In this document: positions 15,616 through 64,000 of the stretch, in pieces
Position numbering within the stretch: the stretch's first letter is position 1
Layout of the letters: every line of letters starts with the position of its first letter
Sequence record: LC727697.1
DNA length: 64,000 nt
Strand: one strand, 5' to 3'
From: Pseudomonas phage sp. 30-2
Notes under the pieces: generated by a model
What the model was told of the DNA's origin: nothing
Databases searched by the model: none
The model's input: only the letters and a program-made list of their open reading frames with translations
Made by a program: the position numbers and the translations under genes

Positions 15616-15691
<76 letters not shown>

Positions 15692-30154: not shown

Positions 30155-30460
30155 TTATTGTGTTAACTTTTTAAGTATAAGTAATTCTGTGTGTTCAGCT
30201 AGAGTGTATGTTGGCTGGTCAGCTTCTACATACTGAACAATTTCACATTCGTTGTATATGTCTTGTAAAACCGGGTTATTACGAATAGTAGTAAGATGAG
30301 ATCTAAGTTTACCTAAAGTATTGAATACTTTTCCCGGACCAGAAGTTACAAACGCCGGACTGGAAGACCCTGTGCTAAATGCACCGTCAGAAATGCGACG
30401 AATTCTATATAGTGCGCCTTTCGGTTCATATACTTTGCTATAATTAATTTTTTTCGTCAA
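30155..30460 (-). CDS. hypothetical protein
   Basis: ORF. Confidence 0.45.
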   Translation of the reverse strand: MTKKINYSKVYEPKGALYRIRRISDGAFSTGSSSPAFVTSGPGKVFNTLGKLRSHLTTIRNNPVLQDIYNECEIVQYVEADQPTYTLAEHTELLILKKLTQ

Positions 30461-30968
30461 TTGAAATATCTCCTGTATATTTGTCCCAGCTAGTATGTAC
30501 GGTATTATCTTTTAAATCGTTTAACTTATGACACCATACTCCTTCGTTAGTTTCATCAAAACCTATATCATCTATCTTTAATATAGTGTTTTTATTGTAT
30601 TCGGATATATTTGGTATTTTTGCACTTATAATAGGAATAAATTTATCATACTTAGATAAATCCATTTCTAAAATTGCAGAAGAATTGCATATATCAAAAT
30701 CTAAAGTACACCAAAATCCTTTATTTAAGCAATGCAGTATCATTTGTTTCCATTTAATTACTTCTGTTATATCTATTTTGTGTAGAGGGAAACTTTGGTT
30801 AGCACCGAAATATATATGTTTACAGTTATGTTTCAGTGCATTACTTACTACTTCGTCACCGGCTTGGGGACCAGCAACAAAAAGTGTTTTTTCACCGTAT
30901 ACTGGAGTATGTTCGACTTCTGTTCCTATAAAATAAATTACTTCTTTTCTATCCATTGTTAGTTCCAA
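30444..30968 (-). CDS. hypothetical protein (weak nucleoside 2-deoxyribosyltransferase/DNPH1-like LFVAGP..E signature)
   Basis: KTLFVAGPQAGDE resembles the IYLAGPFF..E motif; weak. Confidence 0.4.
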   Translation of the reverse strand: MELTMDRKEVIYFIGTEVEHTPVYGEKTLFVAGPQAGDEVVSNALKHNCKHIYFGANQSFPLHKIDITEVIKWKQMILHCLNKGFWCTLDFDICNSSAILEMDLSKYDKFIPIISAKIPNISEYNKNTILKIDDIGFDETNEGVWCHKLNDLKDNTVHTSWDKYTGDISIDEKN

Positions 30969-44016: not shown

Positions 44017-44110
44017 AACATTTTATTGTCTTATTTGACACAAACAAGCATACAATACTGCCCCTGTGCATTAAATACAATGCAAAATAAAAAGCATAGT
44101 AGATGTGCTT

Positions 44111-44197
44111 AAAACACGCAAATTTGCGCTATAGCGCGTTTTGCATGCGTAGTATTAGCTATGTATTGTAAAGCATAAAAACACGCAAATTTGCGCT
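44111..44197. promoter_or_regulatory. 21-bp direct repeat pair (aaaacacgcaaatttgcgcta) each with palindrome GCGCAAATTTGCGC: operator-like
   Basis: copies at 44111..44131 and 44177..44197; additional AGCGCT palindromes nearby. Confidence 0.5.
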
Positions 44198-44254
44198 AAT
44201 TTAGCGCTTATATACAGCTATGCTACAGCGCTTTAAGTAGCTAAAACTAGTCAA

Positions 44255-44286
44255 CAAAAAAGGGGCTTATAAGCCCCTTTTTTGTT
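44255..44286. terminator. bidirectional rho-independent terminator
   Basis: aaaaaaggggcttataagcccctttttt. Confidence 0.75.
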
Positions 44287-44297
44287 TTAACCTACGA

Positions 44298-45482: not shown

Positions 45483-45537
45483 ATAATGCTCCGTTAAAAT
45501 GATATGTTTTGTGTTACGTTACAAGTATAACATTATG

Positions 45538-47843: not shown

Positions 47844-48299
47844 CTACTTAGTACCTTTACTAGATTTTATTACAGTAGTAATGGCGCTGCTCTTTTTATA
47901 TAGCTCAGCTTGGTCTTCATACCTTTGGAATGTGTTAAGTGCCAATGATTCTGAATTAGTATAGAAATTCGCATAAATAGGAAGACAGCAAAAAGAATTG
48001 TCATGAAAATCGTAATAATATGTTTCACCTAATACATTTAATTTTAAAATATATTTTGTTGAGCTCCCTCTTTGCTTGTCTAAAACGACTTCTAGTTTAT
48101 AAAAACTAAATCTCTTTATATAAAAAAATTCTGCTATGATTTTTCTGTATACACAAGAAATTAATGATATAACACACTGATTAGGAACTGCAACAAGCAT
48201 ATAAATTAATGGCACGTTAGTAACATACATATATATTACAGAAAGAATATTTACTAATGTCATTATAATGACAAACAAAGATGAAGTTAGTGTTCTCAT
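47844..48299 (-). CDS. TM-anchored protein, family member
   Basis: KRFSFYKLEVVLDKQRG after the TM helices. Confidence 0.45.
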   Translation of the reverse strand: MRTLTSSLFVIIMTLVNILSVIYMYVTNVPLIYMLVAVPNQCVISLISCVYRKIIAEFFYIKRFSFYKLEVVLDKQRGSSTKYILKLNVLGETYYYDFHDNSFCCLPIYANFYTNSESLALNTFQRYEDQAELYKKSSAITTVIKSSKGTK

Positions 48300-48332
48300 T
48301 CTATAATTCTGTATCCTATTAATATATAAAAT

Positions 48333-48360
48333 AAAAGGGGCTTTAAGCCCCTTTTATTTT
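48333..48360. terminator. rho-independent terminator
   Basis: aaaaggggctttaagccccttttatttt. Confidence 0.75.
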
Positions 48361-48368
48361 GCCCTTAC

Positions 48369-49484
48369 TTAGTTCGAGTCGACAATAAACTTGCCGTACT
48401 CTTGGAAGAACTTAGTGAAGCAAGGGATCAACTTTCTGTTGATCGGCAGTTGGTATTCGCGCAACGCAGTACGCGCGCCGAGGATGACCATTTCTTGGGC
48501 AAAGTTGTTCATCATGTACTCGAAGAACAAGTTTACCGACTTGTGCCAATCCTCGGTAGTGTACTTTTTGTCGGCGTCAGCTACGTCAGCCAGCCACTCT
48601 TTTAGAGTGTAGCACATACTGACCACGAGCGAGTAACGAGCACTGATCTCTTCGACTTTGAGATCGGTTACCCGGCCGGTTAGCACATCTTCCGGCTTCG
48701 GAAGCTGCGAAGCATACTTCATGTGCTGCATGAAGGAGTAGCTGTGACTTTCGCCGACGGTTCCTGCGATAGTCGCACGTAGCAGGTGGTCCTTGTTGAT
48801 TCCTGCGAGCTGGAGGATGTCGGACACGAACTTCCAGGCTCGCGGAGTAGCAAACGCCTTGCTACGATCTTGGGGATCGAAGCAGAACAGGTTCTGCTTG
48901 TGCTGAGTGAGGTAGCCGACTACATCCGGGTGTACCGTGTTGTTAAGCGCCCACTGCTGCCAGTCCTCGAAGTTGGTTTCGATCTGCAAGTGAACGAAAC
49001 GGTTGGCCAACGGACTAGGCATACGATAAGTAACGCCCTTGTCGGTATCGCGGTTACCAGCAGCGACAATGTCGACGCCATCGGGCAGCTTATACGAACC
49101 GATGGCACGGTTCAGGATGAGCTGATATGCAGCGCCCTGCACGCTCGCCGGCGCCGAGTTCATTTCGTCCAGGAACAGGATGGCGTTGTCCAGGGTAGTT
49201 TCGCCGGGTTGCGGAAGATCGGACGGAATAGCCCAGCGCATGGTATTGGTTTTCGGATCGTAGTACGGAATGCCCTTAATATCAGTGGGATCCATGAGGA
49301 TCAGACGCATGTCGATGACCGGACGGTCAGCCTCGAAACCCAACTGGGCGATGATATCCGACTTGCCTACCCCCGGCGGACCCCAGAGGAACACAGGACG
49401 CTTCGCCTTGAACATGCCGCGGATAATTGCAGCACACTCCGTCGGACGAAGATACGTTTCTACGATGTTTTCTTTTTTAGCCAT
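48369..49484 (-). CDS. MoxR-family AAA+ ATPase (AAA_5; CobS/CbbQ/GvpN-like)
   Basis: Walker A GPPGVGKS, Walker B LFLDEMN, VAAGNRDTDKG sensor region; GC about 55%; antisense ORFs on plus strand are artefacts of the GC richness. Confidence 0.85.
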   Translation of the reverse strand: MAKKENIVETYLRPTECAAIIRGMFKAKRPVFLWGPPGVGKSDIIAQLGFEADRPVIDMRLILMDPTDIKGIPYYDPKTNTMRWAIPSDLPQPGETTLDNAILFLDEMNSAPASVQGAAYQLILNRAIGSYKLPDGVDIVAAGNRDTDKGVTYRMPSPLANRFVHLQIETNFEDWQQWALNNTVHPDVVGYLTQHKQNLFCFDPQDRSKAFATPRAWKFVSDILQLAGINKDHLLRATIAGTVGESHSYSFMQHMKYASQLPKPEDVLTGRVTDLKVEEISARYSLVVSMCYTLKEWLADVADADKKYTTEDWHKSVNLFFEYMMNNFAQEMVILGARTALREYQLPINRKLIPCFTKFFQEYGKFIVDSN

Positions 49485-49674
49485 CTATAATGCCTCTGTG
49501 GTTGAATATGTTTTGCTGTTTAACACCTACATTTTACAGCTTGTAGCTTTTAAAACAACACATAATTAACAATTTTTATGAATGCTATTATTTGTTGTTT
49601 TGCAAAGCAGGATGTTATTAAAGCAAATAACTATATAGTTAGTCAACATAGTAAAACGTAATTTTTTAATCATT

Positions 49675-49702
49675 AAAAAAGGGCAATTATAGCCCTTTTT
49701 TC
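49675..49702. terminator. rho-independent terminator
   Basis: aaaaaagggcaattatagcccttttttc. Confidence 0.7.
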
Positions 49703-50238
49703 TTTTTTCTCTTAAAATATTTAGGAAGTCTAAATGTAGGATACCAGCAGGAGCCACGCGGACCGGAATGCCTAGGATAAGCATATCGTTTTCTTTTATC
49801 TTTGCTGTCTTTATATAGTTTAACACCTGTATTATAAAATGATGATCTTTTACTGCTAATTGTTTCTTCCCCGATACAGCGATCATTTCTTTTTTTACAT
49901 GTATTATTTTTATGTTGTTTTGGTTTTCTTTTGTTAAACGAAGAATGAAATATTTCATAATCGGGTGTTTTATTTATAAACCGATAAGATATAGAAACTA
50001 ACTCAGCAACAAACATATAAAATACTTCATTAAGCACAGGGATAGTATCTAAATATTCTGGTTTATTTTGCAATAATTGCATTATTTTGAGAATAATTAA
50101 GAAACTCGCTATAATAGGATTAAAAACTACATTTCCTACTAGTAATATATAAAATGATAGATTCTTAAAATCATACATTTTATTTCTGTGTGTCATCAAA
50201 AACCATTTAATGTAATATTTCATTTTTATACTATTCAT
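49687..50238 (-). CDS. membrane protein with highly basic C-terminal tail
   Basis: N-terminal TM helices; C-terminus KRKRYAYPRHSGPRG...KRKKKKGL. Confidence 0.4.
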   Translation of the reverse strand: MNSIKMKYYIKWFLMTHRNKMYDFKNLSFYILLVGNVVFNPIIASFLIILKIMQLLQNKPEYLDTIPVLNEVFYMFVAELVSISYRFINKTPDYEIFHSSFNKRKPKQHKNNTCKKRNDRCIGEETISSKRSSFYNTGVKLYKDSKDKRKRYAYPRHSGPRGSCWYPTFRLPKYFKRKKKKGL

Positions 50239-53230: not shown

Positions 53231-54217
53231 TTATGGTTTAGCATTAAGAAGTTTTGCAAATTCGTCTGGATATTTAGAGATTTGCTCTAGTGCCCATCTA
53301 TTACAGAATTTTAAAAAATGGATGCCTACGTTAGATACGGGCGGTTTATTACGAGCCACATCTGCGACTGTTTTAAATTCTGTTTTTAGATCATCTGGCT
53401 GACAAGTTAAGTCAATTAGTGTTTTGTTAAATTCGTACTTATCGTGAACAACAAATTCATTACCAGCAGAATCTGTAATTTTTGTCAACATAAAATTATT
53501 CCATGCGTAACCTTTATTATCCATATCGGCAAATACTTCACGCATGCCTACTTTATTTTTAGAACTAGTTTCTCTTGCACCTGGGTACGCTGCAAAAATA
53601 AAATCAGATTTATCTCCCCTAATGCATTTTTCAAATAATAACCATTTAGGATCAGGAGCTACTTTTGGTTTCTTTGTTTTATTATCAATTACAGGTTTGC
53701 CTTTATTATCAAAGAAACCTTCTAATGTGATTAGTTGTTCTGTAATTCCATTATATATTTTAACGTTAGGTGCTAATAGCTGGAAAAAATCGCTGTCTGA
53801 ACTAACAATGATATGATTATCATTTGGATTATTTTGAATCCAAGTAGCTATCATATCATCTGCTTCTGCTTTATGGTGATGTAGTACGCTAGAATTTGTT
53901 TTATCATTAATGAATGTGATTAAATCGTTATATGCTTCCATTAAAGCAGCATCTTCTTCGATTTCAGCTTCTGTTCTTGCCATTCTAGCTGCTGTTCGGT
54001 TGAACTTATATTCTTTATAAAAGTCCTTCCGCCAAGATTTGCCTTCTATGCAAAACACAGCATGATCTGCAGAATGGTCTCTGTATACTTTGCGTATACT
54101 GTTAAACATTACATGAAGACACATGCCTACTTTTTCATCTAACGAGGAGGACCTGATTACATGTTTTGCTCTATGAAACATGTTAAATGTATCGATTAAA
54201 ATATAAGTTTTAGACAT
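53231..54217 (-). CDS. rnh: T4-type RNase H / 5'-3' flap exonuclease (FEN family)
   Basis: N-terminal ILIDTFNMFHRA and central HHHKAEADDMIATW (EADD) blocks typical of the phage 5'-3' exonuclease PIN domain; SSDSDF. Confidence 0.8.
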   Translation of the reverse strand: MSKTYILIDTFNMFHRAKHVIRSSSLDEKVGMCLHVMFNSIRKVYRDHSADHAVFCIEGKSWRKDFYKEYKFNRTAARMARTEAEIEEDAALMEAYNDLITFINDKTNSSVLHHHKAEADDMIATWIQNNPNDNHIIVSSDSDFFQLLAPNVKIYNGITEQLITLEGFFDNKGKPVIDNKTKKPKVAPDPKWLLFEKCIRGDKSDFIFAAYPGARETSSKNKVGMREVFADMDNKGYAWNNFMLTKITDSAGNEFVVHDKYEFNKTLIDLTCQPDDLKTEFKTVADVARNKPPVSNVGIHFLKFCNRWALEQISKYPDEFAKLLNAKP

Positions 54218-54828
54218 TACTTAACTTCCCTTCTATAGTTTTCTTTGCTATCTATTTTGTCATTATCTTCTGAAAGATCGTCTACAGATCCCATTCCTCC
54301 GAATTCGTCTAATGCGATATTTTTACATAAAGTAGATAACCATAAATTTACTACTTCTTCGTCAGTCCTACCTACATATCCGTATTCGTGCAATTCTTCT
54401 ATAAAATATTCATTCCAGTCTAATTCCATTTCTCCTGTTGAAATATCAGAGGAAGACAAGCCTATCTTTATTATATCTACCCAAGGTAGCTTTCTTAAGG
54501 TAGCAATTCGTTTGCTATGTTCCCTTTCATTTATTTTATGATGCTTTAAATCTATATCAGCTAATTTTAAGTCTAAAGCCAGACCCGGATCGTATTGAGT
54601 TTTAGCTAAAGCAACATCGTATTCGTATTCTGTTATTTTACCATATTTAAAATCAATATGTAACAATTCAATTTCTTTGGCTTTGCTTGTTGTATTCGAT
54701 AGTGCTACTAATTCCCTATCTAATTCTTCTCCTTCGAGATAATACTCTGCTTTTGCAATAGCTTTCTGTTTAGCAGGTAATCCCCAGCTATATGGCCATA
54801 ACCAAAATGGAAATAATCTTTTTTTCAT
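54217..54828 (-). CDS. hypothetical protein
   Basis: ORF, ATGA overlap with rnh. Confidence 0.45.
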   Translation of the reverse strand: MKKRLFPFWLWPYSWGLPAKQKAIAKAEYYLEGEELDRELVALSNTTSKAKEIELLHIDFKYGKITEYEYDVALAKTQYDPGLALDLKLADIDLKHHKINEREHSKRIATLRKLPWVDIIKIGLSSSDISTGEMELDWNEYFIEELHEYGYVGRTDEEVVNLWLSTLCKNIALDEFGGMGSVDDLSEDNDKIDSKENYRREVK

Positions 54829-55244
54829 TTATTAAAAATATCCGTTAATTTATTGAACTGGTGTATGTTATTATGATATAACCAGTCTGCAGATTTGTAA
54901 AATATTTCTAGACAATTATCTTCATAATATTTTACTAAAACATTAAAATTGTTATTTTCTATATTTTTAGAAACTGTTTCTCTTCCGTCAACTAATCCTT
55001 GATCATACAGTGCTGTATCTGCATTATTCGATTTTAGTGCAGTGTATTTGCCGTATGCATGAAGTACCTGACCTATATTATACAATTTTAAAGTTAATAC
55101 TTCGGTATTTGCATATTCAGACAGTTTAGTAACCATCCCGACGCATTTTCCATGAAGATGCGGATTTATATAGGATTTATTTTCTCCGCATACTGCATAC
55201 GACGATATTAAACTAAACACTACAGAAAGGATAATACGGTTCAT
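54825..55244 (-). CDS. secreted/periplasmic small protein (signal peptide)
   Basis: N-terminal MNRIILSVVFSLISSYAVCG. Confidence 0.45.
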   Translation of the reverse strand: MNRIILSVVFSLISSYAVCGENKSYINPHLHGKCVGMVTKLSEYANTEVLTLKLYNIGQVLHAYGKYTALKSNNADTALYDQGLVDGRETVSKNIENNNFNVLVKYYEDNCLEIFYKSADWLYHNNIHQFNKLTDIFNK

Positions 55245-55248
55245 GGTT

Positions 55249-56121
55249 TTACCTACCTAGTTGATCGTCACCCCAGGTTAATACGTGAACACGCAAACTA
55301 ACATTCCATTCGTATTCGAAGATAGCTTTATCTGCAAGTCTTCCAATTACCGGGTCTGTTTGTTGGGAATAAATGCCCCCGACTGGCATAACCCACACAT
55401 CTGGTAAATACCCATCGGCATTTAATGTGTCTACTATACTTTTTGCTTGATCCCACGATCGCTGATCTTCATTTACTACAAATTTTAGATAGCTATCCGG
55501 TGCAATATCTATATATTCCTTCATTAAATTTATATGGATAGCTCGTTTGGGTTGTTCACCTGCTACATGAAGTAGTTTAGGTGACATAGAAAAATAAAAT
55601 TGCACACCGATCGATTTGCATCTGTTAACTAAATCGATTAAGCATTTTTCTAACGGTCTAGTTGTATTTGTTTCTATTCCTATCCATGCAGGATAATCAT
55701 TAGTATCTATCCAATAATTTACTATATCTACTATAGATTCTTGGTTTACTAACGGTTCTCCGCCCGTAAATACATGACCTATTTTTTTACCAAATGTTTT
55801 ACTAGGAATTAATTGTTTTATTTCATTTGCAACTACAACAGGATCGACTTCTGTTGCAAGATGTTTAAATTTAGCAAATACAGAATAGTCTGAATCACAT
55901 CCATATTTAGGAGTCGGTAATTGTTTATAATCTGTAATGTTTGTTACATCTATTAAATCCGGTCGTTGTTCTACCCATGTTTCGGGATTTCCAGGTTCTT
56001 TTTGTCCAAAGCCCCTACATTGCAACGAACATCCGAAAAATCTAAGCCAAGTGCATAGTTTTCCGGTATGTAGGCTTTCTCCCTGGACTGAGAAAAACTT
56101 TTCAGTATATCTGTGTTTCAT
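55249..56121 (-). CDS. queE: QueE-like radical-SAM 7-carboxy-7-deazaguanine synthase, atypical Cys spacing
   Basis: FFSVQGESLHTG...LRFFGCSLQC matches the QueE N-terminal block (QGEG..G...R..GC..C); VFTGGEPL SAM-binding motif; Cys pattern CX7CX3C rather than CX3CX2C. Confidence 0.65.
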   Translation of the reverse strand: MKHRYTEKFFSVQGESLHTGKLCTWLRFFGCSLQCRGFGQKEPGNPETWVEQRPDLIDVTNITDYKQLPTPKYGCDSDYSVFAKFKHLATEVDPVVVANEIKQLIPSKTFGKKIGHVFTGGEPLVNQESIVDIVNYWIDTNDYPAWIGIETNTTRPLEKCLIDLVNRCKSIGVQFYFSMSPKLLHVAGEQPKRAIHINLMKEYIDIAPDSYLKFVVNEDQRSWDQAKSIVDTLNADGYLPDVWVMPVGGIYSQQTDPVIGRLADKAIFEYEWNVSLRVHVLTWGDDQLGR

Positions 56122-56191
56122 ACATAATCCGCTTTATTTTATAATATACATTATAAACGCAATCATACTAAAAGTAAAGAATAACTTTATA

Positions 56192-56626
56192 TTAAATAAA
56201 TTGTTTAAATTCAAAACTTACCGAATCATGGTAACTTATTTCATCATGATAAAAATCTACAATTGTATTATTTCTTGTTGCAAATATTGATGCTACTCTA
56301 ATTTTACTAATGTCTTCTTTCGTAAAAAAGAATTCGTCTTCTAACAAAGAAATAACAGAATTTACAGTATTGCCTGTATCGATAACATCATCTACGATAA
56401 TGCATTCAGAACTTATGTCATTATTTGTACTAAAACAATCTTCTACCGGATCGTATGTTACAATGGGGCAATCATAATAATAGCTAATCATAGTGGCAGG
56501 AATTAGTCCACCTTTGCTAATAGCAATAATAACTTTAGGAGAAATTCCTGCTTCGTCTATATCACTAACCAAGTCACTGACAATAACTGGCATTTGATCC
56601 ATTGATACAAAATTTTTATCGTACAT
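56192..56626 (-). CDS. type I phosphoribosyltransferase-fold protein
   Basis: IIVDDVIDTGNT PRPP-binding motif. Confidence 0.65.
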   Translation of the reverse strand: MYDKNFVSMDQMPVIVSDLVSDIDEAGISPKVIIAISKGGLIPATMISYYYDCPIVTYDPVEDCFSTNNDISSECIIVDDVIDTGNTVNSVISLLEDEFFFTKEDISKIRVASIFATRNNTIVDFYHDEISYHDSVSFEFKQFI

Positions 56627-56637
56627 ATAATATCTCC

Positions 56638-57156
56638 TTAAAATATATAAAAGTGTTTACTTAATTCTAAATACGGTTGTACTAATTCTATAATGTGTTG
56701 TTCATTATTCTTATCTAACAAATTATATATTTTTGAATTAATTCCTGTCGATTTAGAAAATTCTTCTAAATAGTCTTTATTAGTGTTATTAGAGAGTTTT
56801 AAAAAGGCATCATTATTTTCTGCACTTTTATTTCTAAATACTATTATTTCTTTTATAGAAGTATTTTTTAATACTGATAATAAGTTTATAAATTGAATAC
56901 TATTGTGGTAGAAATGTTGTTGTAATGTATTGCTTTTTTCTACAGCACAATGAATAAGCGTGTCTGCATCAGACTCGAGTATTATATCTTCTGCGATACT
57001 AGATGCATAGCTAGTTTGATAAAAATTAGTTATGTAACTATTTTTTGAATTAATTAAATCAAATCCCACTACATTATATCCTAATGTATAATAGTATTTG
57101 CTTACTGTTTTACCAACATAACCGTTACAACCAGTAATAATGACACGCATTGCCAT
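56638..57156 (-). CDS. short NAD(P)-binding Rossmann-fold protein (epimerase/dehydratase N-terminal-like)
   Basis: VIITGCNGYVG glycine-rich loop at N-terminus. Confidence 0.5.
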   Translation of the reverse strand: MAMRVIITGCNGYVGKTVSKYYYTLGYNVVGFDLINSKNSYITNFYQTSYASSIAEDIILESDADTLIHCAVEKSNTLQQHFYHNSIQFINLLSVLKNTSIKEIIVFRNKSAENNDAFLKLSNNTNKDYLEEFSKSTGINSKIYNLLDKNNEQHIIELVQPYLELSKHFYIF

Positions 57157-57417
57157 TTACTCTTTTTTCTCCGTACCGTTTATGATAGATAATATGACTT
57201 CGTATTCGTCATATGCAGATTTTAATGCAGGATATTTTTCTGAAAGTAATTTATCTACTTCTAACATGCACAACATTTTTTCTATCTGTTCTATCTTTTT
57301 CCTCAATACTGAAAGTTCTGTATCATACATGCCTAGATCCGTTAATCCGGAGTAGCTAGCTGGCATAGAGTTTATCGTTGTAGTAGTATATATTCCCGAC
57401 AGTTGTTTATTATACAT
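57157..57417 (-). CDS. hypothetical coiled-coil protein
   Basis: ORF. Confidence 0.4.
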   Translation of the reverse strand: MYNKQLSGIYTTTTINSMPASYSGLTDLGMYDTELSVLRKKIEQIEKMLCMLEVDKLLSEKYPALKSAYDEYEVILSIINGTEKKE

Positions 57418-57431
57418 AATAGCATCCTTGC

Positions 57432-57809
57432 TTATTTGAAAAATTCTAAAACAGCTTTATTAATATTGTCTTCTGCCACTGTAATCACAACGTCCCTGTT
57501 AGGATATACAATGTTAATTTGTTCATATAATTCTTCTGCCATTGTTTCACAAGATTTACCATCTAGTTTTAGCAGAGATTCACTATACAGTCTTTCTAAG
57601 AACCGTCTAAATTGAATAAATTCGATATCTCGTTCATTATGAAAAACTTCAATTTTAACAGTAAAATAAAAATAATGAAAATGAGGATATCCTAAAAAAG
57701 ATACATCTTTCCAATCATTTGTAGCTAGTGCAGGGTTACTATCTGCACCCAGGTACATGTGAATTCCTTCTTTCTGAAAAGGAACTTCGATCCATCGTTT
57801 AATTCCCAT
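57432..57809 (-). CDS. hypothetical protein in modification cluster
   Basis: ORF; no CxxxHGH (QueD) or CEHH (FolE) motif seen. Confidence 0.45.
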   Translation of the reverse strand: MGIKRWIEVPFQKEGIHMYLGADSNPALATNDWKDVSFLGYPHFHYFYFTVKIEVFHNERDIEFIQFRRFLERLYSESLLKLDGKSCETMAEELYEQINIVYPNRDVVITVAEDNINKAVLEFFK

Positions 57810-57893
57810 AAAAATAATCCTTATTTTTAATTTTGTAATATTATAATGTTTTCGTATTAAAATGTAAATTGTATGCAGAATATTAAATGGAAA

Positions 57894-58955
57894 TTATTTT
57901 AAAATTCTTTTATACAACTCTGTTCCGTTATAATATTTGTTTAATTCGGGCAGTAAATTAAGTTTCATTTCTTCTACTATAAAATTATAATTACGCATAG
58001 TATAATCTATTAGGGTAACTAAATTTTTTAGGTCTGCCAGATTTTCCGAAATAGTCCATTCATTTGGATATACATACAAATTTCTGTTTTTTACATTTTC
58101 TGTCATTTCTTTATAAGACAATCGGTCAGGCAATAATGGAATTGCACCGACTAATGCACCTTCGTAGAAACCTATACCCAATGTTTCCTGCAACGAAGCC
58201 GAAAAGACAATTTTAGAACGTTTAAGAAGTGTATGGTATTCTGCCTTTGATAATTTAGTTTCTTGTGCAAAAACAAACTCGTAGTTAGGAAGTAATGATC
58301 TTAATTTTTTAAATATATTTGGTTGTTTTTCCGGAGAAATTCGATGAGGAAATAATACAGTATCTGTCTTGTTAGTAGAAGGTGTAAGTTGGTCAACTAA
58401 ATATTCCATTGGCCAACCTACTATATCGTGTCTGTTTATGTTAGCTGTTTTACCAAAAAGGTTATCTATCATGAGATCTTTACTAAAATTAGTTGCATAG
58501 AAATTCACATCATATATATTATATAACGATCTTTCAAATTCATATGACCAATTTTTATCAAAGTGCCTTCCTAAAAAATCATGCGGATCATACGAACCGG
58601 CGTGCCACAACCCCATTATTTTAAATTTTTTATTCATTAACGATCGCATGTAATTTAGTTGAACTACTGTGGGATTCCATGCGTCTGTATAGAGAACAAC
58701 ATCGTTATCGTTTAAAGTTTCTATTATACTTGCTAATTTAATGAATTGATTGCATTTGAATATGTTTGTATTTGCAAAGTTAAGGAAGGCACCCGCAGAG
58801 GTGCCTTCGTCAACATAATCTACATCAATTTGAACTATTTCTGCATCGAGACCGGATTCGTTTATATACTTTTCTAGTTGCGGTTTAAGAAACGTATTCC
58901 ATTCTGACGTATACCGAGTTTCTATTGATTCGATTGGGATTATTATAACTTTCAT
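57894..58955 (-). CDS. GT-B fold (GT1/GT4-like) glycosyltransferase
   Basis: C-terminal QETLGIGFYEGALVGAIPLL resembles the E..G....EA...G.P donor-binding block of GT4 enzymes. Confidence 0.6.
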   Translation of the reverse strand: MKVIIIPIESIETRYTSEWNTFLKPQLEKYINESGLDAEIVQIDVDYVDEGTSAGAFLNFANTNIFKCNQFIKLASIIETLNDNDVVLYTDAWNPTVVQLNYMRSLMNKKFKIMGLWHAGSYDPHDFLGRHFDKNWSYEFERSLYNIYDVNFYATNFSKDLMIDNLFGKTANINRHDIVGWPMEYLVDQLTPSTNKTDTVLFPHRISPEKQPNIFKKLRSLLPNYEFVFAQETKLSKAEYHTLLKRSKIVFSASLQETLGIGFYEGALVGAIPLLPDRLSYKEMTENVKNRNLYVYPNEWTISENLADLKNLVTLIDYTMRNYNFIVEEMKLNLLPELNKYYNGTELYKRILK

Positions 58956-60577
58956 TAATTGTCTAATCCTTGTTCTAATTCGGTTAGTTTTTCGTCGTTT
59001 ATGTCTGCAAATTTATTTTCATCTTCGATTGCAGTAGCATCTACATCAAAAAGACTGTTAAATGAGTTTGAGTTATAATTGCCGAAACTAATGCTGTCTA
59101 GCATAGGTCTATAATCTTCTAATAATTGTCGCTTATTAGGAGTACTCGGATCTAGCAATACTTCTACAAAATGATCAAAATATAAAATCGAACTAGGGAC
59201 GTGATTACTTACTTCTATAGTACCTTTCTTTTTATCTCTAGTCCAATCTCGGTAATCTACTTTAACTCGCAACCGTTCTATATCAACTAATCTATTAGAT
59301 TCTTGGATTGCAGCTATATGATTGTAAACATTGTGATTCATTATTAATAAGTAACTAAGTGAATCCCAACTGGTTTTACCTACTTTACCATTTTTATTTG
59401 CACTCGGTGGCACGTATTCTGCATCTTTTCCTTCTTTGAGAGCAGTTTCTACATCTTCTTTTGTAAAGTTTGCATTTTTAACACCATTTATTATACCATA
59501 ACCATTGTGATATGGACATATGTCTTTTAATGATAATTTTTCCATAATAGGACTCATAAACGGCATAGGAATATCCTTATCACTAAACTCTCTGCTGTCC
59601 GGAGCAGAATCCATATTATATCCCCACCGTTTGGGATTAAAATAATTATAGTTATATGCAAGACCGTATGCCACAGAAACAAACGGAGAAGCTGCGTCAA
59701 AACTTATGTTAATATTGGGATTATAATGTTTTCTTATATTTCGCTGAATAGATGTTAAGAAACAAGCCCAATCAGTCCTGCCTAGTCCGAGAAAGTGTAT
59801 CCAGTTTTTATCTGAAATAATATTATCATCTATTAAATCTAAGAATCGAGAAAGAGCACAATACATATTTCTCATGTTTATACCAGCAAATGCATACCCT
59901 TCGAGTGTATGACTAGCCGGATATCCCATTTCTACTACTTTAGCTGGGTCACTAAATGCTTTTACGTTGTCGTACCAAATTTTAGATGTATCTACATCTG
60001 ATCCCGATAATACACTAAGGAATTTAGTTGCGCCAGGAGTTCTGTTCTTCATGTAATAATGTAAATTATGAAGAGAATAATCTAATGTATCTTCAAATTT
60101 ATTAAGACCGGTTTTTGAACTGTACGGAGGAGTAGCAGCAAACGCAGGAACATCTAGTGTCATTGACCAGTCGGCGGTATGTTCACACCATTTTAAAATT
60201 TCATTTCTTATTTTATCTCCGCTAGCTCCTTTAAAATCATCCCAGTTTAATTTAATTACACCGGTAGCTACCTGGAAACCACCCGAGTCTGCAATAACTG
60301 TTGTTTGTGTTTTGTCCCTGGCTTGGATCATCCATTCTTTTGCATCAGTTCTAGATAAAGACAGTTCTGCATGGCCTGCAGAATATAACCCATACCCGTA
60401 AAAGAATGTATCGCTAGATGGATCTAAAAAATTAAGAGTATTATATCCATTAGGAAAGCTAGGTATTTTTCTTGTAGACGGATCGTTAATAGAACTGTCT
60501 AATTGTTTTGTGTAAAACCCACTAATTGCAGGCAAATAGATCGCATAATCTTTTTGACTGTTTGATAAATTTTTCAT
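58955..60577 (-). CDS. dpdA: tRNA-guanine transglycosylase superfamily protein, DpdA-like DNA 7-deazaguanine transglycosylase candidate
   Basis: VIADSGGFQVATG: catalytic-Asp DSGGFQ signature of TGT/DpdA; 540 aa. Confidence 0.7.
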   Translation of the reverse strand: MKNLSNSQKDYAIYLPAISGFYTKQLDSSINDPSTRKIPSFPNGYNTLNFLDPSSDTFFYGYGLYSAGHAELSLSRTDAKEWMIQARDKTQTTVIADSGGFQVATGVIKLNWDDFKGASGDKIRNEILKWCEHTADWSMTLDVPAFAATPPYSSKTGLNKFEDTLDYSLHNLHYYMKNRTPGATKFLSVLSGSDVDTSKIWYDNVKAFSDPAKVVEMGYPASHTLEGYAFAGINMRNMYCALSRFLDLIDDNIISDKNWIHFLGLGRTDWACFLTSIQRNIRKHYNPNINISFDAASPFVSVAYGLAYNYNYFNPKRWGYNMDSAPDSREFSDKDIPMPFMSPIMEKLSLKDICPYHNGYGIINGVKNANFTKEDVETALKEGKDAEYVPPSANKNGKVGKTSWDSLSYLLIMNHNVYNHIAAIQESNRLVDIERLRVKVDYRDWTRDKKKGTIEVSNHVPSSILYFDHFVEVLLDPSTPNKRQLLEDYRPMLDSISFGNYNSNSFNSLFDVDATAIEDENKFADINDEKLTELEQGLDN

Positions 60578-60640
60578 TATATTCCTTAATTATTCTTTAG
60601 TGCATATGTATTTAGGTTAATTCATTTATAAATGAAAAAT

Positions 60641-60661
60641 ATAGGGCAATTATTGCCCTAT
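60641..60661. terminator. hairpin terminator
   Basis: atagggcaattattgccctat. Confidence 0.5.
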
Positions 60662-60910
60662 ATCATATATTTTTAATGTTCTTTTTGCCCATACACTTAG
60701 TTGTTCACACAACTCTTTTTCGGATTCTTGTTTATAATACAAATTGTCTGTTTTCTTAATACGCTCGAATATAATTTTTTCTTTCTTTGTAAAAAATATA
60801 TATTTTCTGTATACAAGAGTAACTGTAGTTATTGGTCTACCTATAGAATTGTAAGATTCCTGTACAATATAGTATTGCAATTTAACTAATTTACGAGCAG
60901 GTAAGATCAT
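60650..60910 (-). CDS. hypothetical small protein
   Basis: ORF. Confidence 0.4.
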   Translation of the reverse strand: MILPARKLVKLQYYIVQESYNSIGRPITTVTLVYRKYIFFTKKEKIIFERIKKTDNLYYKQESEKELCEQLSVWAKRTLKIYDIGQ

Positions 60911-60913
60911 TAT

Positions 60914-61660
60914 TTATGCACTTTTTGCAGGAAGAATATATTGAACTTCTATTAACCCAGTATCGAGTTCAATCATTAATGCACCCTGGCTAGAAATAGA
61001 CATAGTACATTTGCCACTATCTGCGTTTTTTAGAATTGCTAACACTTCTGGTAATGGCCAGGACCAGTTATTGCGTAATGTGCTCTTTACATCTTTTGCA
61101 AATGGTACAACGGTGCGGTCGCTAGTAGCACCGGTGCCTATGTGGAATTCTAAAACACCGTCTGTTACTTTAACTAAAAAGTTAGATTCATAAGAACCCA
61201 ATACAGCACTAAAATATTGAAGATCCTTCATCGCTTGTTTAGTAGGTTGAATAACTATATCCCACACAACTCCTCTAAACGGCGGAACTTTTAGCACTTC
61301 GTCTACTGTATCTCGTGCCATAAACCGGTACGACGATTTATGACCCGTCGAAGAAGAAAATACAATTTCTGCAGGAATTTCTTCACCGTTACGTTCTTGT
61401 TTCTTAATAGAAACTTCAGCATCATCTCCCGAATATGGTGGGAAATTTAACATACCGCTCAGTACAGACATTCTACTTAAACCTACAGTATCGTCTAACC
61501 CCGGAATGGATTTTTTTAAAGAACCGTACATAACTACAGTTTTATTGGTTGACATAGCTTCTAATTTAGTTTCATTTACAGAACCAATAATTTTAACAGT
61601 ATCTATAAAACCCAAACCGTGAGTGTTACGAACTACGTCCTTTAAATTGTCTACAATCAT
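60914..61660 (-). CDS. hypothetical protein downstream of DNA polymerase
   Basis: 248-aa ORF. Confidence 0.5.
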   Translation of the reverse strand: MIVDNLKDVVRNTHGLGFIDTVKIIGSVNETKLEAMSTNKTVVMYGSLKKSIPGLDDTVGLSRMSVLSGMLNFPPYSGDDAEVSIKKQERNGEEIPAEIVFSSSTGHKSSYRFMARDTVDEVLKVPPFRGVVWDIVIQPTKQAMKDLQYFSAVLGSYESNFLVKVTDGVLEFHIGTGATSDRTVVPFAKDVKSTLRNNWSWPLPEVLAILKNADSGKCTMSISSQGALMIELDTGLIEVQYILPAKSA

Positions 61661-61740
61661 TACTTATTATTCTCCTAAGATGTGTGTGAATTATACATTA
61701 AATATTTTCATAATGCAAGTGTACAAAGTATAGTTTTTGA

Positions 61741-62880
61741 TTACCAACCAAACAGCGAATCGAAGTGTGCAGCAGCTTCTTCTGTTTTACTAAAATCCCA
61801 TTTTAGAATACCTAAAAGGTTCTTAACTTTGTTATCTACTACTTTTTCTCTCATTAAATCTTCATCAAATGGCAAAGACGTAAACCATTCTGGTAAGTGC
61901 AATTCATCTACAGGATATGCTATACTAGTAAAATGATTGTCTGCGGTTTCTTTTAAATAACAAACAACACATTTTTGACCATCTGAGATTTTAGGAGTAT
62001 GTAGGTCTTTATTGATAAGCTTTAGTTTATTCCAATTCATCGCAGCAGACACGTGACCAGGGACAGTGATTCTAGACTCTCTTCCTGCTAACTTTTTATT
62101 CATGTGTTCTTCTAATTTATCTTCATATGTACTGATACCGTTGACGCCTTTTGGCATTCCCTTTTCCCACGGTTTCATTTTATTAAATTCTTTTTTAAAT
62201 TCTCTAATATATTCTATTACTTCATCTTCTGTTTTATGTGTTAGCACCATAACTAGAATTTCCATGAGGAATGTTTGGACAAATTTAGGCGTATCTGACC
62301 GACGTAAGTCTAAACCCATTGCTTTTACTTTTCCTGGGCTGTTTTCGTCGTCGTATCTAGTACCTTCTTTATCATACATCATAGCAGCATAACGTTTCTT
62401 TTTAATAAAAAGACCAGAAGTAGCTACAATTTCCCTACCTGACTTAATAACACCTTCTGAGTTTTTATATGGAACATTAAATGTTTGTTTTAAAAATTCT
62501 GGAAATGTATCACTTACTTGTGACGAAACGTTGTCGTATAATTTAATGACAGTATCTTTATCCCATTCCATTTCGCCAGATTCTACAAGGTCTTTTACTG
62601 CAGGCCATGCAGTAAAATAGCAAGAATTGTGAACTAATATATTATTTCCAAAGAAATACGGATTATCGGGATTTTTCATCCCTATATCGTATACATATTG
62701 TTTCTTTTTTCCTAAATTAGTTACTTTAGATACCTTTCCTAAAGACACATTAAATTTATTAGGATCTCTTTCTTTTATATTTTTGTTTAATTCTTCTAGC
62801 GCTCTTTTTGCACTTTTATATTCTTCGTCTTCTGTTTTTGCAGAAAATACACCTAAAAGGTGTTTTGTTAGATTATGCAT
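61741..62880 (-). CDS. family-B DNA polymerase C-terminal segment: intein C-terminal block (VYD..NFFGNNILVHN) followed by the C-extein (S-CYF..., KKRY region)
   Basis: IKKKRYAAMMYDKEGTRYD...GLDLRRSDTPKFVQ nearly colinear with the T4 gp43 KKRYA..DMEGTRY..GLE..S.TPK.VQ region; YVYDIGMKNPDNPYFFGNNILVHN|S matches intein blocks F/G with +1 Ser of motif C (YGDTD|S). Confidence 0.8.
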   Translation of the reverse strand: MHNLTKHLLGVFSAKTEDEEYKSAKRALEELNKNIKERDPNKFNVSLGKVSKVTNLGKKKQYVYDIGMKNPDNPYFFGNNILVHNSCYFTAWPAVKDLVESGEMEWDKDTVIKLYDNVSSQVSDTFPEFLKQTFNVPYKNSEGVIKSGREIVATSGLFIKKKRYAAMMYDKEGTRYDDENSPGKVKAMGLDLRRSDTPKFVQTFLMEILVMVLTHKTEDEVIEYIREFKKEFNKMKPWEKGMPKGVNGISTYEDKLEEHMNKKLAGRESRITVPGHVSAAMNWNKLKLINKDLHTPKISDGQKCVVCYLKETADNHFTSIAYPVDELHLPEWFTSLPFDEDLMREKVVDNKVKNLLGILKWDFSKTEEAAAHFDSLFGW

Positions 62881-64000
62881 TTATAAATCCTTTGTATAAA
62901 CAATATTTCCCGAATCCCAAATCCTGCCATATCCGTTTGCGTAAATATTTTCTACTACGCTAACCGAATTATTATAATTTTTTAATTTAACTTTTGCCTT
63001 GTCTTTAGAGAAAGATAATCTATTATATGTATCTTTGAAGTCAGTATAATAAAATCCAGGAGCTATTATTGAAGTTTTAGCAAATCCGTTTTTTTCATAA
63101 ACGTTTCCTACGGACCAGCGCCTATTTGCATATGATACTATCTTGCCTGTAAAATTACAAGAAACTACCTTTAATAATTTAGAAAACCCACCTATTACAC
63201 TTGTGTTATTTAGGTTACAAAATCTTACTATTTCCCAGTTTGCATTTTTATTAAACCTGGGCTTTGCAATTGTTAATAAAGAAACTAATTGATCCGAATA
63301 ATACAATCCGTATGCATGCCGAAATTGTGCATGACCTTGCAAATGATTCGTTTCGGCGAATTGCTTTGCATCATCGAACTTAACTTCTTTAATTTCTGTT
63401 TTTCTTGCATATATTTTATTAGATAAACCTAGTTTATTTTTTATTACTGAGATCCATATATCTTTTTTAGTATGCCATTCGTTGTCGAAAATGTGTAATA
63501 ATTGGATATTATTTTGTTCACATGTAGTGGTTTTATCAAGGTGGTATGTTTTATATTTTTGATCAGTTTCTATATGTTTAGAAGAATGCCAATAAAGTCC
63601 ATTATATTCTATTGCAAGATTTTTACTAGGAACATATATGTCTAATTCGAACCCGAATCTATTGTATGAATGAATTGTATCTGAGCAATAAGATTTAACT
63701 AAATCGAATATTTCTATTTCTGCCTTAGACCTGTATGTAGTTTCTGCTACTTTATCTAAACCGCATTTCTGACAACCGTGTCCGGCAGTATGATAGTATG
63801 ATATAAGGTTAAAGTCGCCGTGTACCGGGCATGTTATAATAACTTTATCTCTAATGTTAGTGTATATAGTTTTAGTATAGTCATAAAAATTATTATGAAC
63901 GTTATTACTTCTTTCTATGAAAGAATCTGTGTCATATGATAATCTATGACCGATGGCTTCGAACGAGCATTTTTTACAACCGTGACCTGATTGATGGACG
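62881..64000 (-). CDS. homing-endonuclease-like ORF (partial; continues beyond window) in frame with the polymerase segment and separated from it by a single TAA
   Basis: Hand translation gives HGCKKC/HGCQKC Zn fingers, LAIEYNGLYWHSSKH Vsr-like core and a C-terminal domain paralogous to 45538..47046; stop 62881..62883 abuts ATG 62878..62880. Confidence 0.65.
   Translation of the reverse strand, partial: VHQSGHGCKKCSFEAIGHRLSYDTDSFIERSNNVHNNFYDYTKTIYTNIRDKVIITCPVHGDFNLISYYHTAGHGCQKCGLDKVAETTYRSKAEIEIFDLVKSYCSDTIHSYNRFGFELDIYVPSKNLAIEYNGLYWHSSKHIETDQKYKTYHLDKTTTCEQNNIQLLHIFDNEWHTKKDIWISVIKNKLGLSNKIYARKTEIKEVKFDDAKQFAETNHLQGHAQFRHAYGLYYSDQLVSLLTIAKPRFNKNANWEIVRFCNLNNTSVIGGFSKLLKVVSCNFTGKIVSYANRRWSVGNVYEKNGFAKTSIIAPGFYYTDFKDTYNRLSFSKDKAKVKLKNYNNSVSVVENIYANGYGRIWDSGNIVYTKDL

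Follow-up and report, generated by a model that had tools for sequence, protein, structure and literature searches.

In the DNA of Cellulophaga phage phiST, G is present wholly as 2'-deoxy-7-deazaguanosine (dDG; Cui et al. 2023, PMC10516641). The same study defined DpdL by the motif LxxxHRHxF and proposed that it is a decarboxylase, with the note that expression in E. coli yielded no dDG (PMC10516641). Independent experiments on the Pseudomonas jumbo phage PA5oct showed that its DNA resists restriction at G-containing sites and is attacked by nucleases targeting modified G. These published restriction data indicate that the PA5oct genome carries modified G.

We analysed a window of 64,000 nucleotides from Pseudomonas phage sp. 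30-2 (LC727697.1), and compared the region with ten PA5oct-like Pseudomonas jumbo phages (identity 98.6–99.4%). Our analysis showed that this region very probably contains a deazaguanine DNA-modification module. We slightly favour the fuller reading that the window holds the core of a phage system replacing guanine in its own DNA with a 7-deazaguanine derivative, including a likely sugar step. Every ORF of the original prediction was found at its coordinates on the minus strand, but the run consists of eight ORFs instead of the five genes proposed (Table 1). The gene set of the module recurs at at least nine independent loci. The 139-aa ORF is placed beside it by adjacency, without evidence of belonging; it has no family match, and a homologue was found in none of the related loci. 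The hairpin upstream of the DpdA-like gene, which is a consensus match only, is likely to mark a transcription boundary.

Table 1. Features of the putative modification module and of its surroundings in the window.
Feature	Position	Strand	Basis or remark
DpdA-like (TGT-superfamily) transglycosylase, 540 aa	58955..60577	-	
GT4-type glycosyltransferase, 353 aa	57894..58955	-	
DpdL homologue, 125 aa, T-fold QueD paralogue	57432..57809	-	homology
Conserved small protein, 86 aa	57157..57417	-	homologues in L002, L004
Truncated SDR/epimerase-like Rossmann protein, 172 aa	56638..57156	-	PF01370, phrog_540
Small type I purine phosphoribosyltransferase (PRTase), Gpt-like, 144 aa	56192..56626	-	PF00156
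QueE-like radical SAM enzyme (7-carboxy-7-deazaguanine synthase type), 290 aa	55249..56121	-	phrog_2076
139-aa ORF, hydrophobic N-terminus, adjoins module	54825..55244	-	
w174, 174 aa, conserved module member relocated here	30444..30968	-	homology
Strong hairpin, stem 11–12 bp, then T-run on minus strand	60638..60664	.	terminator-like scan
Sliding-clamp-like protein, 248 aa, replication-module context	60914..61660	-	phrog_12062
Split family B (gp43-like) DNA polymerase, C-terminal fragment	61741..62880	-	PF00136 + PF14890

The core of the original prediction, a 7-deazaguanine DNA-modification module around a DpdA-like transglycosylase, is well supported, since the 540-aa protein comes nearest to DpdA in its fold and its catalytic Asp triad shows no variation. 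DpdA was the best match in structure comparison, QTRT2 and TGTs were also strong structural matches, and the significant Foldseek matches were TGTs only. The motifs are collinear with those of the DpdA-type proteins of Acidovorax phage ACP17 and Xanthomonas phage X1, as well as with the residues described for DpdA in PMC10164549. None of the TGT or DpdA sequence models was matched by the 540-aa protein, and the canonical zinc site CXCX2C...H is present in 0 of 41 DpdA-like family members. In Vibrio phage 2.275.O, the homologue lies within a complete cluster, with QueF, YhhQ, QueC, Gat, FolE, QueE, and QueD directly beside it. The DpdA-like gene is always located beside replication genes, either PolB and the clamp or, in Phosso, primase and helicase. 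The predicted activity of the enzyme is to replace guanine in DNA with a 7-deazaguanine base. Its gene had been described as overlapping the glycosyltransferase gene by ATGA; the junction is ...AAT TAA TG AAA..., a one-base TAATG overlap between the DpdA-like stop and the glycosyltransferase start.

The QueE-like assignment was confirmed by phrog_2076 (7e-49) and by conserved QueE motifs (ExFxSxQGE, R27, TGGEP, ETN, and the Cys triad C31/C35/C75). The Cys spacing, previously read as CX7CX3C, is CX3CX39C in our alignment, with an insertion ahead of the third Cys. We take this as the cluster motif because C31, C35, and C75 are nearly invariant in 109 QueE-like homologues (99%, 98%, and 100%), whereas only 40% of them retain C23. 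The gene clusters with QueE genes at all 11 loci compared, and in Vibrio 2.275.O its homologue is the sole QueE candidate within the inspected part of the deazaguanine cluster region. The nearest Schizotequatrovirus homologue, nt-1 ORF151, lies beside nrd and topoisomerase genes; no further deazaguanine-pathway gene is annotated within about 10 kb.

The window contains no FolE, QueD, or QueC, as had been noted. Our search of the rest of the genome for the three genes found FolE and two QueD paralogues about 52 kb away, but not QueC. The phage FolE matches PF01227 at 1e-59 and clears the NCBIfam cut-off. No QueC, QueF, Gat, or YhhQ was found by tblastn across the whole PAC2 genome, and QueC appears to be truly missing, not merely encoded elsewhere. 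Because of this absence, the predicted base would be of the 7-carboxy-7-deazaguanine (CDG) or 7-deazaguanine type and not of the preQ0 type, a branch that we consider probable.

The 125-aa protein, for which no role in known Dpd pathways had been seen, is homologous to DpdL, which has been proposed to decarboxylate CDG in phages with 7-deazaguanine in their DNA. It matches phrog_17812, phiST CGPG_00067 (DpdL; tblastn, 32.5% identity, 1e-7), and ACP17 gp125 (46% identity). Its motif is L39-x3-H43-F-H45-x-F47, and it deviates at conserved positions, with HFH for HRH and EDNINK for EDGENG. Homologues of the 86-aa protein (40–50% identity) occupy the same position, adjoining the epimerase gene, in the metagenomic relatives L002 and L004. 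The protein w174 had no match in Pfam, PHROG, or PDB. Its homologues (36–40% identity) are ACP17 gp122, encoded just upstream of the DpdA gene, the L002/L004 proteins, encoded between the glycosyltransferase and DpdL, and the L019 protein, encoded next to DpdL.

The glycosyltransferase, predicted to be of GT-B type, is a GT4-type enzyme. Of 22 family members, 16 match PF00534 (best 8e-12); the protein of the window on its own scored under the Pfam cut-off. Its best PDB match is the GT4 enzyme WlaC, and the GT4 catalytic residues R205/E209/K210 and EX7E (E257...E265) are conserved. Identity is 38% to ACP17 gp124 and 43% to the Phosso enzyme. The gene adjoins DpdA-type or DpdL genes in ACP17, X1/BUDD, BCSR5, Phosso, jumbo metagenomic contigs, and marine contigs. 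Such adjacency spans five or more unrelated lineages of phages, despite gene shuffling, and abundant marine contigs. All full-length matches in cultured phages are in DpdL-bearing phages, and related modules carry sugar-nucleotide enzymes (SDR epimerase, UDP-glucose dehydrogenase). This conserved linkage strengthens the earlier proposal that the glycosyltransferase may be a pathway member. The GT4 family consists of retaining O- or N-glycosyltransferases, and plain 7-deazaguanine has no hydroxyl and no obvious O-acceptor for a sugar. Chemical precedents are HuiG, which glycosylates the 7-deazapurine base in huimycin, and the glycosylated queuosine of tRNA. Glycosylation of deazaguanine is plausible, and we suggest a sugar on the DNA base of PA5oct only tentatively. 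The glycosyltransferase accompanies these genes in many phages, so a sugar-bearing deazaguanine could account for the modified G of PA5oct.

The PRTase and Rossmann folds proposed for two other proteins were borne out. The former is a type I PRTase (PF00156, 3e-11, 43.3 bits, cut-off 26.3) whose top NCBIfam match is xanthine PRTase; the marine modules L019 and L021 also carry a PRTase from its PHROG (8995). The latter is an SDR epimerase reduced to its N-terminal Rossmann half, with residues 5–106 corresponding to positions 1–112 of the 240 in the PF01370 profile, and it matches phrog_540, a nucleotide-sugar epimerase. GxxGxxG is present, and no YxxxK was seen in the 172-aa sequence. In the relatives the module epimerase is full-length (245–322 aa).

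We propose that phage FolE and QueD would convert GTP to CPH4, whose ring would be contracted to CDG by the QueE-like enzyme. From CDG, the DpdL homologue is expected to form 7-deazaguanine by decarboxylation, the reaction suggested for phiST; the pathway would stop short of preQ0 because QueC was not found. After replication, the DpdA-like enzyme would flip G out of the double-stranded phage DNA, release guanine, and insert the deazaguanine base, with D294 as the presumed nucleophile on C1', D97 as general acid/base, and D142 as base reader. Using an NDP-sugar, the glycosyltransferase would most likely add a further decoration to the deazaguanine, either once it is in DNA or immediately ahead of its insertion. 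The PRTase plausibly converts the expelled guanine to GMP/GTP, feeding FolE; alternatively, it may handle the deazapurine base.

Plain dDG (or dCDG) might instead be inserted as in phiST, with the glycosyltransferase acting off DNA, on a pathway intermediate or a protein, or in an unrelated function. phiST-type phages reach 100% dDG with FolE, QueD, QueE, DpdL, and DpdA and have no glycosyltransferase, no O-acceptor is obvious, as described above, and PA5oct has only a truncated form of the SDR epimerase partner. This reading is nevertheless rather doubtful in view of the linkage of the glycosyltransferase to DpdA-type/DpdL genes across unrelated lineages, its constant company with DpdL in cultured phages, and its conserved catalytic residues. 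Another route would act before replication: a PRTase like TubE/ToyH of tubercidin and toyocamycin biosynthesis would use PRPP to make a CDG or 7-deazaguanine ribonucleotide, to be decarboxylated, reduced, and phosphorylated to deaza-dGTP for the polymerase, and the TGT-like protein would be auxiliary or proofreading. The PRTase is conserved in PA5oct and the marine modules, TubE is a CDG-specific PRTase, related modules hold MazG and HIT nucleotide enzymes, and the phage encodes its own ribonucleotide reductase. However, the best match of the PRTase is Gpt-type, the clusters of ACP17, X1, BCSR5, and phiST have no PRTase but always a DpdA-type gene, and DpdA is encoded by every known deazaguanine-carrying phage (PMC10516641), which makes this route improbable.

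TGT enzymes act on tRNA, and the substrate might be the phage tRNA-Asn(GUU) or host GUN tRNAs; the window contains 12 tRNAs, including tRNA-Asn with anticodon GTT, and QTRT2 and TGTs are among the strong structural matches. We regard this as very unlikely, as the top match is the DNA enzyme DpdA, the gene is tied to replisome genes and not to the tRNA cluster, many family members lie on contigs without a nearby tRNA, and it is PA5oct DNA itself that resists restriction. That these are unrelated neighbours and that other genes make the PA5oct modification is scarcely credible: database matches are weak or absent for several members, but the same gene set recurs at the independent loci mentioned above.

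Compared with Salmonella Montevideo DpdA (PDB 7ui4; PMC10164549), the PA5oct protein shares the TIM-barrel TGT fold and the invariant Asp triad, which by motif order corresponds to D95, D130, and D256. It differs in having 14% identity with no sequence-profile match, no CXCX2CX22H zinc site, and a predicted substrate other than preQ0; no DpdB ATPase partner was found for it. ACP17 and X1 share the DpdA-GT-DpdL-QueE arrangement with PA5oct, but their DpdA type (phrog_10773) shows only marginal similarity (22% identity; hhalign E 8e-5) and their clusters lack the PRTase. No report on the DNA chemistry of ACP17 or X1 was found in the papers searched. The phiST system (PMC10516641) is alike in having FolE, QueD, and QueE without QueC, a DpdL T-fold paralogue to which the PA5oct protein is directly homologous, a divergent DpdA, and a cluster adjoining the DNA polymerase. 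PA5oct differs in its transglycosylase, which is of another subfamily (540 aa against 259 aa in DpdA3, with no significant sequence match), in its extra GT4 glycosyltransferase, PRTase, SDR fragment, and w174, and in the dispersal of FolE and QueD in the genome. Among enzymes with free or RNA-borne 7-deazapurines as substrates, TubE/ToyH are precedents for a PRTase that takes CDG, and HuiG and QTMAN/QTGAL (glycosyl-queuosine) for glycosyltransferases acting on a 7-deazapurine base or queuosine; these enzymes are part of secondary-metabolite or tRNA pathways and have no action on DNA.

The module had also been placed directly downstream of the gp43-like polymerase. It does lie downstream of the C-terminal PolB fragment, but the clamp-like gene and a small ORF stand between. 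This fragment opens with a C-terminal intein half (PF14890 positions 99–155 of 155), and the N-terminal fragment holds intein positions 2–93. The clamp-like gene, which the annotations of PAC2 and Phosso call PCNA or clamp, also has PolB on one side and the DpdA-like gene on the other in L002, L004, L006, L019, and L021, and adjoins PolB in Phosso (L015). The suggested exchange with the T4 hmC cassette at a conserved locus is unsupported, since the gene order PolB, clamp, DpdA-like is an ancestral trait of a large jumbo/marine phage clade. Other deazaguanine phages likewise place their clusters beside replication genes, and the relation to T4 is therefore a positional analogy, with locus homology not demonstrated. 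In T4, the gp43-type polymerase is followed shortly downstream by gene 42 and the alpha- and beta-glucosyltransferase genes, as it is by the module in PA5oct. The modified base is a purine in PA5oct and a pyrimidine in T4, base exchange is predicted in the former whereas the latter replaces the dNTP pool, and the phage ThyA is an ordinary thymidylate synthase. The profile of the GT4-type PA5oct enzyme matched no T4 glucosyltransferase chain among PDB sequences. What the module would share with the hydroxymethylcytosine glucosylation of T4 is the further masking of a non-canonical base by a sugar from an NDP-sugar.

The region 54825-62880 shared 98.6-99.4% identity with ten jumbo phages of Pseudomonas aeruginosa that belong to the PA5oct group (Wroclawvirus, Arenbergviridae), of which Deifobo was the nearest. 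The annotated reference was phage PAC2, whose position 214068-(x-54825), on the other strand, is the equivalent of window position x. The modification block had been described as five genes, the first two overlapping by ATGA; our analysis showed that it comprises eight ORFs and that the genes of the 540-aa and 353-aa proteins share a single base (TAATG). The G+C content of the window was about 30% throughout, and a promoter scan, which gave 57 sites against 52 expected, was uninformative in such AT-rich DNA.

Features of the region around the modification module and the polymerase, in order of transcription
Feature	Position	Strand
Family B polymerase, C-terminal fragment	61741-62880	-
Clamp-like protein	60914-61660	-
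86-aa ORF	60650-60910	-
Strong hairpin with T-run	60638-60664	
540-aa protein (DpdA-like)	58955-60577	-
353-aa protein (GT4-type)	57894-58955	-
125-aa protein (DpdL homologue)	57432-57809	-
86-aa protein	57157-57417	-
172-aa protein (SDR N-terminal half)	56638-57156	-
144-aa protein (PRTase)	56192-56626	-
290-aa protein (QueE-like)	55249-56121	-
139-aa protein	54825-55244	-
203-aa protein	54217-54828	-
RNase H / 5'-3' exonuclease	53231-54217	-

Elsewhere in the window, two 2-kb bins (44001-46000 and 48001-50000) had a G+C content of 0.42 against about 0.30 in the others. By coordinate mapping, their PAC2 neighbours are genes for a Zn-dependent hydrolase and a homing endonuclease, and an ATPase gene, and the bins possibly represent mobile or acquired DNA. 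A 12-tRNA cluster (window 11800-16027 and 5605-6216) contains three copies of tRNA(CAT) besides tRNA-Asn(GTT). Since a TilS-like PP-loop gene (PF01171) lies near this cluster, one of the CAT tRNAs may be a lysidine-modified tRNA-Ile.

The 540-aa protein had no match in Pfam (E up to 0.1, including PF01702), PHROG or NCBIfam, and searches against PDB sequences by phmmer and by a 41-sequence profile each returned 0 matches. At least 1,605 close homologues were found in metagenomes, and among 1.84 billion cluster representatives a profile search retrieved 1,019 clusters with E values up to 1e-3, 296 of them at 1e-30 or better. An AlphaFold2 model built from the family alignment had a pLDDT of 89.6 and a pTM of 0.89, and its significant Foldseek matches in PDB were exclusively tRNA-guanine transglycosylases (TGT) with the TIM-barrel fold. 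The predicted relationship to TGT/DpdA was therefore recovered by structure comparison, whereas the sequence models did not detect it.

The general acid/base motif DSGG[FY]Q, present as D97-S-G-G-F-Q102, was invariant in 41/41 family members, and D142 (TLDVP) and D294 (SFDAASP) were likewise invariant across the 41-member family. In DpdA, D95 is the general acid/base, D130 serves base recognition and D256 is the nucleophile, and these aspartates also define TGT (PMC10164549). From the order of the motifs, we infer that D97, D142 and D294 are the corresponding residues. Alignment of the family by hhalign with the DpdA-type proteins of Acidovorax phage ACP17 and Xanthomonas phage X1 was collinear across the aspartate motifs (SFDEIP and SYDS in ACP17/X1) with an E value of 8e-5. 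The canonical zinc site CXCX2CX22H was missing, CxCxxC being found in 0/41 members; in its place C272, C354, H415 and H420 are kept in the family and could possibly form an alternative 2Cys-2His site.

Upon tblastn search with two family members against 50,697 cultured phage records, only PA5oct-like phages, Sinorhizobium phage Phosso and Vibrio phage 2.275.O were found. DpdA3 of Cellulophaga phage phiST gave no BLAST match to the family and a profile E value of 0.006 in a six-sequence database. A 464-aa protein of Vibrio phage nt-1 matched the 540-aa protein by structure only (Foldseek E 2e-8), and a search for DpdA2 in two nt-1 regions yielded a QueE-like paralogue and otherwise unrelated genes. 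The protein has the fold and the aspartate triad, yet no sequence match to DpdA3 or DpdA2, and we therefore file it as a separate subfamily of the TGT/DpdA superfamily outside the named DpdA1-4, DpdA2 being judged from the structural match to the 464-aa protein and the negative BLAST. Even without a sugar step, this defines a large DpdA-like subfamily that is missed by current Pfam and PHROG models, so that surveys relying on these models would under-count deazaguanine-modified phages.

The 290-aa protein matched phrog_2076 at 7e-49. Its cysteines C31, C35 and C75 were conserved at 98-100% among 109 homologues, C23 at 40%. Thus the cluster motif is CX3CX39C, with a long insertion ahead of the third cysteine, and not CX7CX3C as first read. 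The QueE motifs ExFxSxQGE, GGEP and ETN are also conserved (E7, F9, S11, Q13, G14, E15, R27, T119-P123 and E150-N152). In Pfam the protein had only a weak Fer4_12 match, and the best NCBIfam model scored 41.6 bits, over the N-terminus only, against the QueE equivalog cut-off of 260. The QueE-like assignment stands on the PHROG match, the three cysteines and the motifs; the protein falls below the curated equivalog cut-off. The closest Schizotequatrovirus homologue is nt-1 ORF151 (positions 10001-10876 of our nt-1 locus L007; 37% identity), which adjoins topoisomerase gp52 and nrd genes and has no other annotated deazaguanine-pathway gene within about 10 kb. One record labels it 'queE_3', which suggests that these phages carry several QueE-like paralogues.

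The three enzymes reported as absent from the window were sought in the complete PAC2 genome, where FolE (PF01227 at 1e-59) and two QueD/PTPS paralogues were found but QueC was not. The former adjoin the thymidylate synthase gene and lie outside the window, some 52 kb away from the module. They lie at PAC2 153864-157302 (locus L011, 3864-7302) in the order FolE and then the two differing paralogues, one with CxxxHGH and an insertion, resembling QueD of Vibrio phage 2.275.O, and the other with CxxxHGY, resembling QueD of phiST and ACP17. Together with DpdL, the two QueD types bring the T-fold proteins of the phage to three. A tblastn search over the whole PAC2 genome found no QueC, QueF, amidotransferase (Gat) or YhhQ; the annotated TilS-like PP-loop protein was rejected as a QueC candidate because its family is PF01171. 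On this basis the product is predicted to be 7-carboxy-7-deazaguanine (CDG) or 7-deazaguanine, and not preQ0, preQ1 or archaeosine.

The 125-aa protein, to which no role in known Dpd pathways had been assigned, was found to be a homologue of DpdL. In a BLAST search of 2.3 Gb it matched CGPG_00067 of phiST (32.5% identity, E 1e-7) as well as the orthologues of CGPG_00067 in phi13:1 and phi19:2, and also ACP17 gp125; the identity of the 125-aa protein to the ACP17, Phosso and marine homologues was 46-59%. CGPG_00067 is DpdL, a QueD paralogue proposed as CDG decarboxylase in phages whose DNA is fully 2'-deoxy-7-deazaguanosine (dDG); this activity is a proposal for phiST and ACP17 as well (PMC10516641). 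Within the DpdL motif LxxxHRHxF (PMC10516641), L39, H43, H45 and F47 are kept in PA5oct, and residue 44 is F where other DpdL proteins have Arg. The kinship of DpdL to QueD rests on the same study; our hhalign comparison gave a probability of 10.7% with shallow alignments, and a single-sequence AlphaFold model (pLDDT 51) was too poor for a T-fold reading.

For the 353-aa glycosyltransferase (GT), PF00534 (Glycos_transf_1) was detected in 16/22 family members, the best at 8e-12, and the family profile matched the GT4 enzyme WlaC in PDB at 4e-4. The family is of GT4 type; the PA5oct protein itself scored 18.8 bits, under the Pfam cut-off of 26.4. Residues R205, E209, K210 and E265 do not vary within the family, and at least 90% of members have E257; these residues correspond to EX7E and the diphosphate-binding R/K. 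A possible resemblance of the GT to QTMAN/GTDC1 is not claimed here. The best 120 of at least 8,000 matches were full-length with about 45% identity or more, and several of these 120 were labelled as of Tara Oceans source.

The GT is 38% identical to ACP17 gp124, which sits between the DpdA-type gene and DpdL. In X1 and in Burkholderia phage BCSR5 the homologue lies directly upstream of the DpdA-type gene; another adjoins DpdL in Phosso, and homologues were present in 4/4 metagenomic loci examined. Among cultured phages, full-length GT matches were all within DpdL-bearing phages, whereas DpdL occurs without the GT in Cellulophaga phages and several others. Judging from this distribution, the GT is an optional add-on to the DpdL branch, as expected of a decorating enzyme. 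Related modules also contain sugar-nucleotide enzymes. Modules on two marine metagenome contigs (L019 and L021) add two 2OG-Fe(II) oxygenases and a HIT-family protein, and in L021 the additions extend to a UDP-glucose dehydrogenase and another two radical SAM proteins; these extra enzymes possibly perform further tailoring, such as a hydroxylation that makes a sugar acceptor.

The 144-aa PRTase scored 43.3 bits with PF00156 (cut-off 26.3) and has the PRPP-binding loop IIVDDVIDTGNT; its nearest model is xanthine-guanine PRTase, making it a Gpt-like type I enzyme. The 172-aa Rossmann-fold protein corresponds to the N-terminal half of an SDR nucleotide-sugar epimerase, whose relatives are 245-322 aa long, and a full-length epimerase occupies the same place in the relatives' modules. 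GxxGxxG is present as GCNGYVG, and no YxxxK of the SDR catalytic S/T...YxxxK was seen in the 172-aa sequence. The 174-aa conserved protein w174 (30444-30968) has homologues in ACP17 (gp122) and within the metagenomic modules; in PA5oct its gene has been relocated to a site about 27 kb from the module, and the protein had no family, PHROG or meaningful PDB match. Its gene overlaps and follows an ADH_N/zinc-dehydrogenase-like gene (30959-31861), beside which lies a 288-aa ORF without family match (31861-32727). Possibly, the stretch 30444-32727 forms a detached second part of the modification pathway.

In PA5oct, as in T4, modification genes lie directly downstream of the polymerase, and the original prediction was that one cassette had been exchanged for another at this conserved locus. 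In Vibrio phage 2.275.O, the DpdA-like homologue follows PolB-like and clamp-like genes, and just one hypothetical ORF lies between it and the genes for QueF, a YhhQ-type transporter, QueC, an amidotransferase and FolE; genes for a QueE-like protein and QueD come further downstream. This neighbourhood links the DpdA-like family to deazaguanine. Metagenomic jumbo-phage and marine contigs keep the order PolB, clamp, DpdA-like. The DpdA-like gene of Phosso adjoins primase and helicase, and the clusters of phiST, ACP17, X1 and Phosso are near polymerase genes too. Because the order is ancestral in a large clade and other clusters are also polymerase-proximal, the exchange reading is unsupported; the position is a recurrent association and not evidence for exchange at a homologous locus.

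The polymerase itself is a fractured gene (window 61741-64000 and beyond; PAC2 locus L001, 14917-20143). An N-terminal ORF of 803 aa ends in an N-terminal intein half (PF14890 positions 2-93). Next comes, in a different reading frame, a free-standing 560-aa ORF for a Hef-like homing endonuclease that has a stop codon of its own, and then a C-terminal ORF of 379 aa opens with the C-terminal intein half, which ends at ...NILVHN|S. In relatives PolB is unsplit (889-983 aa). This arrangement suggests that the gp43-like replicative polymerase is joined by protein trans-splicing. The clamp-like protein was seen in PA5oct virions by ESI-MS/MS according to the note of GenBank MK797984, which is unusual for a replication clamp.

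The original observation was largely right, and its core reading was supported and sharpened: the chain to CDG and the base exchange into DNA are well supported by homology and context. DpdL would then decarboxylate CDG, the GT would add a sugar, and the PRTase would recycle guanine or carry out a TubE-like reaction. We propose tentatively, with clearly less than even confidence, that the GT4 enzyme puts a sugar on the 7-deazaguanine placed in DNA by the DpdA-like protein, at N2 or the electron-rich C7, or on a hydroxylated derivative. HuiG is a precedent for glycosylation of a 7-deazapurine base, and queuosine in tRNA is a second; our literature search found no paper on glycosylated deazaguanine in DNA.

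Two main rivals were weighed against this proposal. The DNA might carry plain dDG with the GT acting elsewhere, which would agree with the dDG genomes of the phages in which DpdL was proposed and with the DpdL phages without GT; the neighbourhood of the GT to DpdA-type genes and DpdL argues for a role within the pathway. Both the GT and the transglycosylase are acidic, so that charge and pI cannot discriminate DNA binding. Alternatively, the PRTase might drive a nucleotide-level route, against which its Gpt-like type speaks. An hmC/hmU acceptor for the GT is unlikely, because the ThyA of the FolE/QueD region (one homologue) is an ordinary thymidylate synthase, scoring 222.7 against the equivalog cut-off of 108 and keeping the Asn of PTNI.

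According to published reports, PA5oct-type DNA withstands restriction as well as CRISPR nucleases and is targeted by modification-dependent END nucleases. One preprint found that END nucleases, one of them specific for G-modified phages, restrict PA5oct and named QueE (gp162) and a PTPS (gp230) as candidate genes; a 2026 preprint found PA5oct highly resistant in vivo to all nucleases tested. Neither preprint names the base, the transglycosylase, DpdL or the GT, and we found no paper naming the PA5oct base. Our analysis points to a probable insertion enzyme, assigns an "unknown" gene to DpdL and predicts the CDG/7-deazaguanine branch over preQ0, in phages that are candidates for phage therapy.

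The GT is genetically tied to this branch in many phages. If the sugar reading is true, the glycosylated purine would be the first of its kind described from a viral genome, made by a previously unnamed DpdA subfamily with DpdL, the PRTase and w174, in a system widespread among uncultured marine and jumbo phages. Sugar masking of DNA, seen on pyrimidines in T4 hmC and related systems, would thereby extend to purines. It would also explain the recurrence in marine viromes of about 1,000 DpdA-like clusters (50% identity) and of related GT proteins numbering in the thousands. Compared with the known deazaguanine DNA-modification systems, the present one is a variant with a GT and a separate DpdA-like subfamily.
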